Assembly: GCA_043815185.1 (NCBI GenBank)
Contig: JBDRJF010000026.1
Location: forward strand, 773-64,772
Direction: 5' to 3'
Length of the DNA stretch: 64,000 nt
DNA from: Candidatus Omnitrophota bacterium
Lineage (GTDB): Bacteria; Omnitrophota; Gorgyraeia; Duberdicusellales; 4484-171
A model generated the notes under the pieces. That model did not search any database, had not been told where the DNA came from, and saw only the letters and a list, made by a program, of their open reading frames with translations. Below, one piece after another: positions 11,187 to 54,230 of the stretch. The first letter of the stretch is position 1. Every line of letters begins with the position of its first letter. The translations under genes and the position numbers were made by a program.

Positions 11187-11239
11187 AATAACGATATATC
11201 CAATCTCACCAGAGGTGAAGTGGCAACTGTAACTAAGAG

Positions 11240-11806
11240 ATGAATACGCCTAATAAACTTACCATTCTGCGCATAGTGCTTTCTTTTGTCTGCATCGGTT
11301 TCATACTCAAGAACAGCCTTTTTTCACTTATTGTTGCCTTTATCGTCTTTTGTCTGGCTTCGATAACCGATTTTTTGGACGGTTATTTAGCCCGGCGAAA
11401 AAATTTAATCTCGGATTTAGGCAAGATCTTAGATCCTATTGCCGATAAAATACTTATTATCGGAGTATTCTGCGCTTTTTTAGAATTAGGTATTATAAAT
11501 ACCTGGATGGTGAGTTTAATCATGTTTCGGGAATTTATTATTACCGGTTTAAGATTATACGGTTTAAATAAGGGGGTTACCCTGGAGGCAAGAAGGCTTG
11601 GCAAACATAAAACCCTATCGCAGGTTTTGGGAATATTTATTGTCCTTTTTACGCTTATTTTTAGGATGATTTTTCCGGCCAGTCCGGTTGCTACTTTTTT
11701 CTACGAAAAACTGATCCCGATTCTGATGTGGTACATTGTAGTCATTACCCTTTTTTCCGGTGCTTACTATTTCTGGGTAAACCGTCAAGCTATCAGAACA
11801 TTTTAA
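11240..11806 (+). CDS. pgsA: CDP-diacylglycerol--glycerol-3-phosphate 3-phosphatidyltransferase
   Basis: CDP-alcohol phosphatidyltransferase motif DFLDGYLARR...G..LDPIADK. Confidence 0.9.
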   Translation: MNTPNKLTILRIVLSFVCIGFILKNSLFSLIVAFIVFCLASITDFLDGYLARRKNLISDLGKILDPIADKILIIGVFCAFLELGIINTWMVSLIMFREFIITGLRLYGLNKGVTLEARRLGKHKTLSQVLGIFIVLFTLIFRMIFPASPVATFFYEKLIPILMWYIVVITLFSGAYYFWVNRQAIRTF

Positions 11807-27280: not shown

Positions 27281-27415
27281 AAAAAATTAAAAACCAAAAA
27301 TAAAAAACTAAATACAGGTATTAAAAACATTAAAATTTTTAAATTTTTTGTTTGTGTTTTTGGTATTTAAGATTTAATTTTTAATATTTGATTTTTATAA
27401 GAGTGGAGCGATGAA

Positions 27416-36067: not shown

Positions 36068-36167
36068 ATATTGGAAAATTCATCTTAAAAAAATATTGTC
36101 ATCTTTGGTTTCTATGCTATAATTTTCTTCTGTTTGCCAGTTGCTTTACGCTGGTAGATATTTAATT

Positions 36168-36243
36168 GCCGAGGTAGCTCAGGCGGTAGAGCGAGGGACT
36201 GAAAATCCCTGCGTCAGGGGTTCAACTCCCTTCCTCGGCACCA
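36168..36243 (+). tRNA. tRNA-Phe (GAA), CCA encoded
   Basis: Manual cloverleaf: acceptor GCCGAGG/CCTCGGC, D arm GCTC-AGGCGGTA-GAGC, anticodon arm AGGGA-CTGAAAA-TCCCT, T arm AGGGG-TTCAACT-CCCTT. Confidence 0.95.
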
Positions 36244-36372
36244 TCGTCTTTTTGATAAAAGTTTGTTCTATGAGCCGAGGTTCATCTAAATGTGTAAAGA
36301 AACGACGGTTGAGGCTAAGCCTCAACCGGCTCCACCTTCGGCGGAGATTGGATACAACTCCCTTCCTCGGCA
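36244..36372 (+). repeat. tRNA-Phe-linked element: diverged left part, 45-nt double-hairpin module, second copy of the tRNA-Phe 3' end
   Basis: 36306-36350 is 43/45 identical to 51011-51055. 36355-36372 is an exact 18-nt copy of tRNA-Phe 36223-36240. 36274-36281 (GCCGAGGT) repeats the tRNA 5' acceptor strand. Confidence 0.65.
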
Positions 36373-36442
36373 TATTATGAATACTGTGTGGTCATAAAAG
36401 AAGGCCTATTTGTTTTATAGACATATATATACTTTTCGAACA

Positions 36443-36499
36443 GCGAGGGAATGATTAAGAAGAAAGCTTTGCCTTCGGCAAAGAATCGTTACCTCGGCA
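36443..36499 (+). repeat. Degenerate third unit: single CCTTCGG hairpin followed by CCTCGGCA
   Basis: Hairpin CTTTGCCTTCGGCAAAG (36467-36483), then CCTCGGCA (36492-36499). GCGAGG at 36443 can pair with CCTCG. Confidence 0.35.
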
Positions 36500-36532
36500 C
36501 TTTTATTAATTGATAATTTGTGAGTTCTATAA

Positions 36533-49982: not shown

Positions 49983-50816
49983 ATGAAAGTTTTTTTAGAC
50001 CTTGACAAAATTAAAGATTTATATTGGAATAAAAAATATAATCTAAAAGAAGTTTCTGAGAGCTTAGGCGTTTCATTTTGGTCATTATATAAGTTTATGA
50101 GCAAAAACAATATTCCCCGGCGAAGACGTTCGGAAGCAAACTATGTAGGAAATAAACATAAGTTACACTTTGAGGTAAAAAATGAATTGACAAAGAAAGA
50201 CAGAGAGCTGAAGATTGCCGGAATTATGTTATACTGGGCAGAAGGCTCTAAGAATCTAAAGTCTAATATGTTAGATTTCATTAATAGCGATCCCGACATG
50301 ATAAAGCTTTTCCTAAAATTTCTACGTCAGATATGTGGAGTGAAAGAAGATAGGCTTAGGCTGTATTTATACTCTTATTCTTATCAAGAGATAGATAAAT
50401 TAAAAGATTATTGGAGTAGACTAACAGGCATCTCTCAAAGCCAGTTTTTTAAACCCTATGTTAGGGAAGGTAGTCCTAATTTAAGCGAAAGAAAATTACC
50501 TTATGGATTGGTGCATATTAGGTATTGCGATAAGCGTTTATTGGAATTAGTTCTTAATTGGATTAAAGAGTTCAAGAATGATATATTAATAAAATGGGCA
50601 GGTACCCTAGTGGTCAAAGGGGACAGACTGTGTAAAACGCAGCGTCTTGCTGAAAGGCAGGATGGAAAAGTGGGTGAATTCAGGGAAACCCTTAACATTT
50701 TTAATGGTAAGGGTAATCCTGAGCCGAGTTCTAAATCGTATGGTTTAGAAAGGGTGCAGAGACTATCCCGTAAGGGAGTAGCCCGGCGATTGTCGGTCGA
50801 AGCGCCTACCACCTAA
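49983..50816 (+). CDS. LAGLIDADG-family homing endonuclease-like protein with an N-terminal HTH; 3' end uncertain
   Basis: Single LAGLIDADG-type motif (KIAGIMLYWAEGSK), then FINSDPDMIKLFLKFLRQ and YGLVHIRYCDKRLLELVLNWI blocks. Codons from about 205 onward are tRNA-Tyr exon 1 plus intron sequence. The first in-frame stop is inside the intron. Confidence 0.72.
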   Translation: MKVFLDLDKIKDLYWNKKYNLKEVSESLGVSFWSLYKFMSKNNIPRRRRSEANYVGNKHKLHFEVKNELTKKDRELKIAGIMLYWAEGSKNLKSNMLDFINSDPDMIKLFLKFLRQICGVKEDRLRLYLYSYSYQEIDKLKDYWSRLTGISQSQFFKPYVREGSPNLSERKLPYGLVHIRYCDKRLLELVLNWIKEFKNDILIKWAGTLVVKGDRLCKTQRLAERQDGKVGEFRETLNIFNGKGNPEPSSKSYGLERVQRLSRKGVARRLSVEAPTT

Positions 50817-50928
50817 ATCCTGCTTTTAGCGGGATATGGTGATGAGATAGTCCAAGCCCTAAGGTAACTTAGGAGTACTTGAAATCTGTTGTGCTTGCAC
50901 TTCGAAGGTTCAAATCCTTCCCTGCCCA
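50596..50928 (+). tRNA. tRNA-Tyr (GUA), class II, interrupted by an intron (exons 50596-50631 and 50882-50928); CCA not encoded
   Basis: Joined exons give acceptor GGGCAGG/CCTGCCC, D arm CCCT-AGTGGTCAA-AGGG, anticodon arm ACAGA-CUGUAAA-UCUGU, long variable arm, T arm GAAGG-TTCAAAT-CCTTC. As I recall it, this is closely collinear with E. coli tRNA-Tyr. Confidence 0.88.
50632..50881 (+). ncRNA. Group I intron (IC3-like) in the tRNA-Tyr anticodon loop, between nt 35 and 36
   Basis: The 5' exon ends in U. P1 is CUGU/GCAG (50628-31 with 50639-42), closing with a U-G wobble. The terminal nt is G. Core strings AATTCAGGGAAACCC, GGGTGCAGAGACTA and CCACCTAAATCC resemble tRNA group I intron cores such as Azoarcus (from memory). 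Confidence 0.8.
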
Positions 50929-51080
50929 TAGTTTTCTTTGAGGCCTAAGGTTGTTTGATGAAAACAGGGTGATTGGTTTGACAAGGTGACATTCATTTGG
51001 ATGCAATATGCGGTTGAGGCTAAGCCTCAACCGGCTCCGCCTTCAGCGGAGATTGCCTACAAATCCTTTCCTGCTCACCA
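50929..51080 (+). repeat. tRNA-Tyr-linked element: diverged left part, 45-nt double-hairpin module, second copy of the tRNA-Tyr 3' end with CCA
   Basis: 51011-51055 is 43/45 identical to 36306-36350. 51060-51077 matches tRNA-Tyr 50911-50928 at 16/18, and both changes are C-to-T. Confidence 0.65.
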
Positions 51081-54159: not shown

Positions 54160-54230
54160 TATAGTGGTTATTTGAGGGGTTTGAGATATCCGGAGAGTGG
54201 TAGAGATAGCACAGAGAAAAGGGGTAGAGA

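Follow-up and report, generated by a model that had tools for sequence, protein, structure and literature searches.

Positions 36274-36372 of the 64,000-nt stretch of Omnitrophota DNA analysed here (the window) lie downstream of a tRNA-Phe gene, begin like this tRNA and end like it, which raises the question of whether the segment is a tRNA-like RNA or the product of an insertion. Omnitrophota is a phylum known almost solely through metagenomes. The original prediction favoured an RNA: the 99-nt stretch would be co-transcribed with tRNA-Phe, closed by a mimic of the acceptor stem, and cut by RNase P and RNase Z or given a CCA, thus yielding a stable small RNA. Our analysis leads to a different answer, namely that 36244-36500 probably holds two stacked insertion elements, both non-coding and of one family, within the 3' region of tRNA-Phe (Table 1; related loci are given by L numbers).

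Table 1. Features of the tRNA-Phe locus and of the related copies in the window
Feature	Position	Strand	Basis
Promoter-like site TTGTCA-16-TATAAT before tRNA-Phe	36096-36123		Promoter scan
tRNA-Phe(GAA) gene, CCA encoded	36168..36243	+	ARAGORN; Rfam tRNA, 67 bits
Proximal 18-nt direct-repeat copy CAACTCCCTTCCTCGGCA, T-loop C56 to discriminator, within the working tRNA-Phe	36223..36240	+	
CCA and T-rich trailer, homologous to the relatives' native tRNA-Phe trailer CCATTGTTTTTTTAA.AAAAGTT...	36241..36273	+	Alignment A4
GCCGAGGT, the "5' acceptor strand" of the original prediction, at the position of the trailer-hairpin 5' arm	36274..36281	+	
Remaining locus-specific arm, ~14 nt (GTTGGATCCAATAT) fewer than in ortholog L001	36282..36305	+	
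Hairpin hp1, CGGTTGAGGC-TAA-GCCTCAACCG	36306..36328	+	10/10 pairs kept across 17 copies, 2 with double changes
Hairpin hp2, CTCCACCTTCGGCGGAG, single A.C mismatch on this strand	36330..36346	+	
P1 3' strand ATTGGATA, orphan in the window copy (partner deleted)	36347..36354	+	
Distal 18-nt repeat copy ("tail"); final 8 nt (36365-36372) are CCTCGGCA	36355..36372	+	Empty sites in L134, L144, L146
"Mini" element, smaller, same architecture as the main Phe element	36373..36491	+	Model R1, 33.2 bits, E = 7e-8 (match 36442-36498)
Mini: N4-G-P1 strand GAGG-G-AATGATT	36445-36456		
Mini: hairpin CTTTGCCTTCGGCAAAG	36467-36483		
Mini: P1 3' strand AATCGTTA	36484-36491		
Third copy of CCTCGGCAC, direct repeat flanking the mini, then ancestral flank TTTTATTAATTG	36492..36500	+	Comparison with L001, L134
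Tyr-linked copy	50911..51077	+	Model R1, 89.5 bits
Tyr: proximal repeat in tRNA-Tyr	50911-50928		
Tyr: arm	50929-50994		
Tyr: module	50995-51059		
Tyr: N5-G-P1 strand	50995-51007		
Tyr: hp1	51011-51033		
Tyr: hp2	51035-51051		
Tyr: P1 3' strand	51052-51059		
Tyr: distal repeat, 2 mismatches, then CCA	51060-51077		
Arm downstream of tRNA-Pro(GGG), lacking module and tail	54161..54204	+	
Internally deleted remnant of a gene-start copy, pgsA-like gene	11192..11242	-	Weak R1 match

The two ends of the segment are indeed as predicted: it holds GCCGAGGT, identical to tRNA-Phe nt 1-8, and ends in CCTCGGCA, the tail being an exact 18-nt copy of the tRNA. The 99-nt RNA folds in silico with a 7-bp acceptor-type stem closing it (-41.4 kcal/mol, z = -4.75). 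An 8-nt word common to the ~62-nt arm and tRNA nt 1-9 has p = 2e-4 in dinucleotide shuffles (computed on L001, an ortholog with an identical 8-mer), and the arm-versus-tail duplex energy has p ~0.007. The same shared-word test gives p = 0.57 for the copy linked to tRNA-Tyr, 0.14 for Pro-CGG and 1.0 for Pro-GGG (combined 0.54), and their arm-tail duplexes have p = 0.11-0.84; at Tyr, AAACAGGGT (50962-50970) pairs only partly with the 3' end, as had been foreseen, closure being by the five pairs CAGGG/UCCUG alone. The Phe 8-mer is not a random coincidence, yet only the Phe locus shows it. The original prediction had named missing 5' matches in further copies as a result that would speak against it, and none of these three copies has a match beyond chance. 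Its claim that an att scar alone is insufficient for the 5' strand is borne out, the Phe word being non-random. The closing helix is formable in every Phe ortholog with a known tail, its 5' word being GCCGAGG in the window and L001 and GUUGAGG (two G.U pairs) in L139; L145 keeps ACCGAGG, in a contig that stops before the tail.

The origin of the 5' strand was sought in an alignment (A4) of eight tRNA-Phe trailers, including relatives that lack the main element. From 36241 on, the arm is collinear with the native trailer, and the L145 arm resembles the empty trailer of L146 with p = 0.0055. In the columns of the 8-mer, L139 and L153 have GTTGAGGT, L142 has GTTGAGAT and L145 has ACCGAGGT. Relatives without the main element have a complete trailer hairpin in these columns (GTTGAGGTCAGACCTCAAC in L153, GTTGAGATCAGATCTCCAC in L142 and GGTTTAGATCAGATCTAAACC in L154, there followed by ATTTTG), of the type GTTGAGG...CCTCAAC; what stands in the 8-mer column is thus a hairpin arm (GTTGAG...), not the tRNA-like GCCGAGGTAGCT... 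word. A GC-containing hairpin with a T-run, the mark of an intrinsic terminator, lies ~25-30 nt past the tRNA in these relatives, and the window keeps its 5' arm only. Because the sequences align column for column with the relatives' complete hairpins, GCCGAGGT is the surviving 5' arm of a native, terminator-like trailer hairpin. On this alignment, the 5' strand is not a tRNA-derived acceptor strand; the trailer arm would have resembled one beforehand (G..GAGGT), and two T>C changes on the branch of window, L001 and L145 would have turned resemblance into identity.

The 3' "acceptor strand" has another source. Considering that a direct repeat accompanies every tRNA-linked copy and that the sites in relatives are empty, this strand is a duplicate of the target. 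Indeed, past the distal copy in L001, and past the mini in the window, the flank CTTTT(T)ATTA.TT is the sequence found immediately after the tRNA where L134 has its empty site. The probable order of events is that the 3' arm of the trailer hairpin was lost first and that GTT then became GCC, so that, opposite the orphan CCTCGGC, the two T>C changes put G-C pairs where there had been two G.U pairs. In this small sample it is suggestive that the two changes were selected for pairing, for example by restoring a stem before the T-run or by neutralising the orphan acceptor strand. Two T>C changes that perfect a 7-bp stem, together with the G.U-compatible state in L139, have the appearance expected of a selected RNA helix, and this counts against our preferred explanation. 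A weaker form of the speculation on guided insertion given below takes the Phe stem for just such a selected helix, which two compensatory changes would have created and which would neutralise the orphan acceptor strand.

The two interior hairpins, predicted to be conserved, recur after tRNA-Tyr (51011-51051), and they belong to a wider family. Its constant part, the module, has ~70 nt and forms a three-way junction, in which a stem, P1, surrounds one or two hairpins (hp1, hp2); the consensus is 5'-N4-G-GATACAAT-(3-5 nt)-hp1-GG-hp2-ATTGTAT-A-N4'-3', and P1 gains a further 4-5 bp by pairing with the bases that open the neighbouring target copy (tail). Across 17 distinct copies, 94.7% of the cells are paired and 9 pairs have double changes, so that the covariation check that had been suggested supports P1, hp1 and hp2; none of 500 shuffles reaches the observed values, and slid controls are ~36% paired. 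In P1, three compensatory double changes separate the Phe orthologs L139 (AAACAAC/GTTGTTT, one hairpin only) and L001 (ATCCAAT/ATTGGAT). The junction pair occurs as GC, AU, UA, CG and GU and follows the target: GATG/CATC and AATG/CATT at gene starts, GTTG/CAAC at tRNA-Phe, CTTG/CAAG at Pro-CGG, ATTTG/CAAAT at Tyr and Pro-GGG, and GAGG/CCTC in the mini. Six different core sequences are joined to one and the same right arm.

With the covariance model R1, four module-type sequences are found in the window: the Tyr-linked, Phe and mini copies (89.5, 53.6 and 33.2 bits) and a weak minus-strand remnant at 11190-11266. A scan with the hp1 core in one genome per species gave 14 further copies in 4 related MAGs, eight of them in one MAG, and further copies occur in metagenome and orthologous contigs. 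An LhgO-like protein encoded in the window is 100% identical to one from a Candidatus Omnitrophota MAG at NCBI. No Rfam family was matched, at gathering or E-value thresholds, by the window, the element or three loci, and plasmids, phages and viral contigs held no copies of the family; three viral matches to a degenerate pattern were chance matches in coding sequence. The family is best read as undescribed, MITE-like or integrative micro-elements of Omnitrophota.

Against this family background the Phe copy of the window is an incomplete one. The ~14 nt that it lacks relative to L001 hold N4 and the 5' strand of P1, therefore the family's best-supported helix cannot form there. According to the folds, the acceptor-like stem would then be what the folding program has left once P1 is lost. 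The loss of P1, and a score of 53.6 bits where intact copies reach ~90, look like decay.

These results allow the tRNA-like RNA to be judged. Its closing stem can be formed in silico, is pairable in L001 and L139 as well, with the ACCGAGG word kept in L145, and pairs better for the GTT to GCC change; a strong promoter by the scan lies upstream, and the plus strand is free of terminators between tRNA-Phe and the element. On the other hand, Rfam tRNA has no match in 36244-36530 at E <= 10, ARAGORN calls the real tRNAs and nothing in the element, CCA is absent directly 3' of the tail, and there is no T-arm, the 3' strand of the T-stem being left without a partner in the folds of the element. Bacterial RNase P and RNase Z recognise an acceptor stem stacked on the T-stem-loop; the missing T-arm thus counts against release by either enzyme. 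The P1 strand lost from the window copy, a 5' strand that comes from a terminator-type hairpin arm, and Tyr and Pro copies with no 5' strand beyond chance weigh in the same direction, and we regard a stable tRNA-shell RNA as very unlikely. What stands of the prediction is that the stem can form and that an att scar does not suffice; comparison gives no support to a tRNA-like RNA, and the segment is a weak candidate for a tRNA mimic. Minihelix substrates and mascRNA-type RNAs do share with it a 7-bp stem identical to the acceptor, a discriminator and a place downstream of a tRNA promoter, but the element lacks a stacked T-arm, CCA and conservation of the 5' strand in sister copies, and this strand is a terminator-type arm.

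The insertion elements that we prefer as the explanation are linked to tRNA genes in four lineages (Phe, Tyr, Pro-CGG and Pro-GGG), always on the strand of the tRNA. Each tail is an 18-19-nt tRNA copy that runs from the CA of the T-loop to the discriminator or one base past it, and the repeats end short of CCA. The tRNA-Tyr gene was missed by ARAGORN because a group I intron splits it; the ORF at 49983-50816, considered as a LAGLIDADG endonuclease, had no Pfam match. Downstream of tRNA-Pro(GGG), the window has the bare arm, which in L013 continues into the module and a tRNA-Pro repeat of 19 nt. A duplication from the T-loop to the start of the next gene is not significant in the window and L001 (p = 0.06 and 0.40) and is clear in L139 alone, with ~45 nt.

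An exact 8-mer and an exact 18-mer of one tRNA, in the right order, would also be left if a tandem second tRNA-Phe had stood ~30 nt downstream and the module had replaced nt 9-55, leaving nt 1-8 and 56-73. In the relatives L142/L143, L153 and L154, the 5' end of tRNA-Phe is indeed partly copied in tandem. Such a gutted pseudo-tRNA is nonetheless highly improbable: the arms resemble tRNA interiors no more than chance would allow, cognate tRNAs scoring no higher than non-cognate ones; the 8-mer column is a hairpin arm in relatives; both flanks are collinear with the native trailer; and the other tRNA-linked copies have no 5' piece. The arms were also tried as decayed tRNA 5' halves, and several matches that were persuasive by eye (for example Tyr GGCAAGGTAAC and Pro-CGG GGGGGT...TTTGCTAG) were no better than shuffles or non-cognate tRNAs. 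A 12/13 match of AGCGAGGGAATGA to a tRNA anticodon stem was rejected as a coincidence, since this is the N4-G-P1 strand of the mini and matches 9/13 in L137.

Insertion by the same family is seen at protein genes. All 12 gene-start copies examined stand exactly at start codons within operons, in antisense orientation relative to the genes on either side, and in each the stop codon of the upstream ORF is 3-40 nt before the native ATG. By an automated check, 10 of them have an insert of 140-147 nt (169 in L003, with an extra hairpin) followed by CTATTGTA.GTAAGAG-ATG and the remainder of the gene; for L008 and L012 this check recovered no downstream ORF start. The copies thus carry their own Shine-Dalgarno sequence and ATG, and the P1 extension pairs with the old ATG. 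The remnant at the pgsA-like gene retains CATCTCTTAGTTACAG as its left end, together with the hp2-like hairpin CTTCACCTCTGGTGAG and with ATTGGATATATCG; L003 and L011 have the complete copy there. We also considered a conserved leader peptide (MYTISA..) that would start from the leftover ATG, but it is incidental, its length and stop position being variable.

Filled and empty sites in close relatives give the most direct view of the insertion. L134 and L138 are 91-92% identical in ilvB/ilvN, and a precise 143-nt insert lies at the ilvN start codon of L138 only: L134 reads ..GCG TGA TATT ATG AGA CAT, and L138 reads ..GCA TAA AA ATG, then the 143-nt element ending in AGGTAAGAG ATG, then AGG CAT. 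Only the ATG is repeated here, and the Shine-Dalgarno sequence is therefore element-borne. At tRNA-Phe, the main element is present in the window, L001, L139 and L145 and absent from L134, L144 and L146/L147, and the mini is present in L137/L138, where it lies directly in tRNA-Phe flanked by CCTCGGCAC, and absent from L134 and L001. Because sites are empty in close relatives, the family by sequence comparison is, or recently was, mobile. In L142/L143, L153 and L154, mirror-image events at the D-loop have moved tRNA-Phe nt 1-12 upstream by a hairpin-bearing insert. With insertions at the T-loop and mirror events at the D-loop, the tRNA-Phe gene is a hot spot in the clade, and it is left intact in every case because the insert carries, at one end, a repeat of the piece cut off. 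Copies in the window are decayed or deleted at 36282-36305, 11192-11242 and 54205.

Integration at the T-loop sublocation classically leaves as its footprint a repeat of 18-19 nt that spans T-loop to 3' end, and tandem repeats are found at the same tRNA. It is thus possible to think of an island scar, in which a P4-type tyrosine integrase put a kilobase element into the tRNA-Phe T-loop, nearly all of it was deleted, and the module is a leftover attP arm. Integrase att duplications (islands, P4-like prophages, cis-mobilizable elements) share with the Phe locus a repeat from the T-loop to the 3' end, a tRNA completed by the copy, a second, distal copy, repeated insertions at one tRNA and empty sites in relatives. 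What would tell such a scar is an integrase gene, kilobase cargo or full-length relatives, and none of these was found among the sequences searched; 114 nt lie between the Phe repeats. The differences go further: the insert is only ~130 nt; the repeat stops before CCA (at Phe, one base past the discriminator); the one right arm is joined to six different target cores and to start codons; the module is at no fewer than 12 start codons in inserts that are uniformly 140-147 nt; and the ilvN insert is precise against an empty site in a 92%-identical genome. No integrase or transposase Pfam family is present in the called genes at the orthologous Phe loci (L134-L148). We consider the island scar quite unlikely. 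A moving enzyme, an excised form or an autonomous relative was likewise not found in public scans, among the metagenome matches listed.

For the mobile micro-element, the arrangement of the copies suggests how insertion may proceed. The sites lie after TT, at TT|CA (in the tRNA T-loop, or read antisense as ATG|AA at a start codon) or at TT|CCTC. At its end remote from the module, the element rebuilds the part that was cut off, which is T-loop to discriminator for tRNAs and Shine-Dalgarno sequence plus ATG for protein genes, and the original piece of the target stays as a direct repeat beside the module. The targets survive since the missing tRNA end, or else a new ribosome-binding site with its start codon, comes with each copy. 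Repeat length varies, with CAT (3 nt) at ilvN, 8-9 nt in the case of the mini, 18-19 nt for tRNAs and ~45 nt in L139; some of this sequence may be element-borne. Such unequal lengths and the absence of clear terminal inverted repeats speak against our explanation, as does the fact that a simple staggered cut does not account for repeats of 18-19 nt which, in four tRNAs, stop at the discriminator or one base past it. Movement would be due to a trans-acting recombinase or transposase that reads the folded end, in analogy to the pairing of guide and cleavage site in IS200/IS605 and to integron attC, and classic integrase capture of a tRNA 3' segment could have given rise to the tRNA-specific "patches".

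We propose, as a speculation that is unlikely to hold, that the three-way junction is the working end of the insertion system, the 4-5 nt beside P1 being a resettable guide, and that each lineage has a co-evolved "repair patch". The guide would have been re-set among lineages to at least six targets: two start-codon contexts, the T-loops of four tRNAs (tRNA-Phe, tRNA-Tyr and two tRNA-Pro), and in tRNA-Phe the acceptor strand as well. If this is true, the family would amount to a programmable micro-element that heals its own insertions into essential genes, and if pairing between module and junction directs insertion, it would be a compact example of nucleic-acid-guided site choice.

The module may instead be kept for the cell. 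Between L003 and L011 it is ~92% identical and the flanks ~75%, and arms with flanking genes stand at ~70-75%; such conservation far above its surroundings fits better with an in-situ function (RNA or protein binding) than with inert debris. The compensatory changes in P1, hp1 and hp2 agree with this, as does the pairing of the P1 extension with the old ATG at gene starts. One could thus picture a host-functional motif whose mobility is its origin only, acting in transcript processing or stability, as a mask for the leftover start codon, as a terminator or insulator, or as a protein-binding site. The orientation, however, is opposite by class, sense after tRNAs and antisense in operons, the window has the decayed and deleted copies listed above, and the element holds no promoter and only weak terminator-like sites. 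A cellular role as the main explanation is accordingly improbable to our judgement.

Other known systems share features with the mobile family. MITEs and small repeats (Correia/NEMIS, ERIC, RUP, BOX, REP/REPIN) are likewise short, non-coding, multi-copy and strongly folding, lie harmlessly between operon genes and vary in presence among close genomes. In contrast to them, the present family has no clear terminal inverted repeats, its ends (left CATCTCTTA.CTACAATAGTT, right GGAGATTGTATA) sharing only TACAAT with an offset of 2 nt, and P1, its inverted repeat, lies internally towards one end; insertion takes place precisely at ATG|AA or in the tRNA T-loop, the Shine-Dalgarno sequence with ATG or the tRNA 3' end is element-borne, and the junction stem covaries with the target. 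IS200/IS605 elements and PATEs have a subterminal hairpin ~10-11 nt from the right end and insert 3' of a fixed word, as here at TT|CA: hp2 ends 8 nt before the junction, or 11 nt if CAT is counted in the element, and the targets are TT|CA(T/A) or TT|CCTC. As in the guide and cleavage-site pairing of IS608, a few bases 5' of the folded end pair with bases of the junction. The gene-start copies differ in having no conserved left-end hairpin, no Y1 transposase or TnpB was identified, and long tRNA repeats are foreign to IS200/IS605. Integron attC sites, finally, fold as imperfect palindromes in which a base is left unpaired (here G.A), tolerate a branched interior, and their outermost stem bases come from the partner site, as they do here. 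The attC motifs R''/R' (RYYYAAC/GTTRRRY) are absent, the P1 strands being (N4)GGATACAAT and ATTGTATA(N4'), there are neither cassette arrays nor IntI, and the stem has only 12-13 bp.

These very small elements insert into essential targets: tRNA genes, and operon genes at their first codon. The family accounts for the odd partial tRNA duplications (5' and 3') around tRNA-Phe in the clade, and also for contig breaks at insertion sites and spurious short ORFs. In a metagenome scan with the hp1 pattern, 4 of the at least 120 loci listed belong to the family; the other matches come from an unrelated GC-rich MITE of ~230 nt in peat metagenomes, which shares GGTTGAGGCNNNGCCTCAACC.

The first hairpin of the module (hp1), which lies beside hp2 within the three-way junction closed by stem P1, may be a captured solo hairpin of the kind found at tRNA-Phe loci. 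Solo hp1-like hairpins lie near the tRNA-Phe genes of relatives (contigs L139, L137 and L153), with the sequences GGTTGAGATC.GATCTCAACC, GTTGAGGCCAGGCCTCAAC and GTTGAGGTCAGACCTCAAC, and part of them occupy a terminator position. The exact hairpin GGTTGAGGCNNNGCCTCAACC, followed by GGCGAGGCGCAGCCTCGCC, is common, through either relatedness or convergence, to hp1 and a GC-rich, MITE-like repeat of about 230 nt in peat metagenome contigs (L014-L133; for example, L018 7635-8055). The two ends of this element are long inverted repeats, GCGGCTCTGCCGCC..TTGCGGAAAGGC...GCCTTTCCG, and more than 100 copies are present among the matches listed.

The tRNA-Phe loci of three relatives carry a further rearrangement: the intact gene is preceded upstream by a partial duplication of its 5' part, in which tRNA-Phe nt 1-12 are followed by a hairpin-bearing insert beginning TCC, and then by ..CATTGAG, nt 13-21 and TCCGCCTTCG. 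In L153, a strong promoter precedes the pseudo-copy; therefore, the real tRNA-Phe would carry a long structured leader when made.

Features at tRNA genes in the window and in contigs of relatives
Feature	Contig	Position	Strand	Remark
Solo hp1-like hairpins	L139	11212-11263, 11481-11503		near tRNA-Phe locus
Solo hp1-like hairpin	L137	4651-4708		near tRNA-Phe locus
Solo hp1-like hairpin	L153	1610-1700		near tRNA-Phe locus
Partial 5' tRNA-Phe duplication	L142	7028-7240		
Partial 5' tRNA-Phe duplication	L153	1346-1520		
Partial 5' tRNA-Phe duplication	L154	1482-1625		
ORF, 277 aa	window	49983-50816	+	between tRNA-Thr and tRNA-Tyr
tRNA-Tyr(GTA), intron-split	window	50596-50928		intron 50621-50874

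At tRNA-Pro(GGG), the window (54161-54204) and L013 (1103-1145), a relative about 90% identical, have the arm downstream of the gene in common; the window arm lacks both the module and the distal tRNA-derived tail, and synteny with L013 stops exactly at the left edge of the module. The ilvB-ilvN junction of the window holds an extremely AT-rich spacer of 135 nt (27281-27415), which differs from both the 4-nt empty site of L134 and the element of L138. Several metagenome contigs end at or inside the module (L145 at 4425, also L109 and L044), a pattern that assembly breaks at the repeat would produce; thus, its copy numbers in metagenome-assembled genomes are probably underestimates.

A group I intron, matching Rfam RF00028 at 84.7 bits, splits the window tRNA-Tyr(GTA) in its anticodon loop; ARAGORN made no call for the split gene. 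The ORF upstream spans the 5' exon of this tRNA and runs on into the intron; it has no Pfam match, so the endonuclease-like look of KIAGIMLYWAEGSKN in it is unconfirmed. In bacteria, tRNA-Tyr is not known as one of the tRNAs that commonly host group I introns. In L013, the ORF is absent, tRNA-Thr adjoins tRNA-Tyr, and tRNA-Tyr is intron-less, which makes the intron polymorphic.
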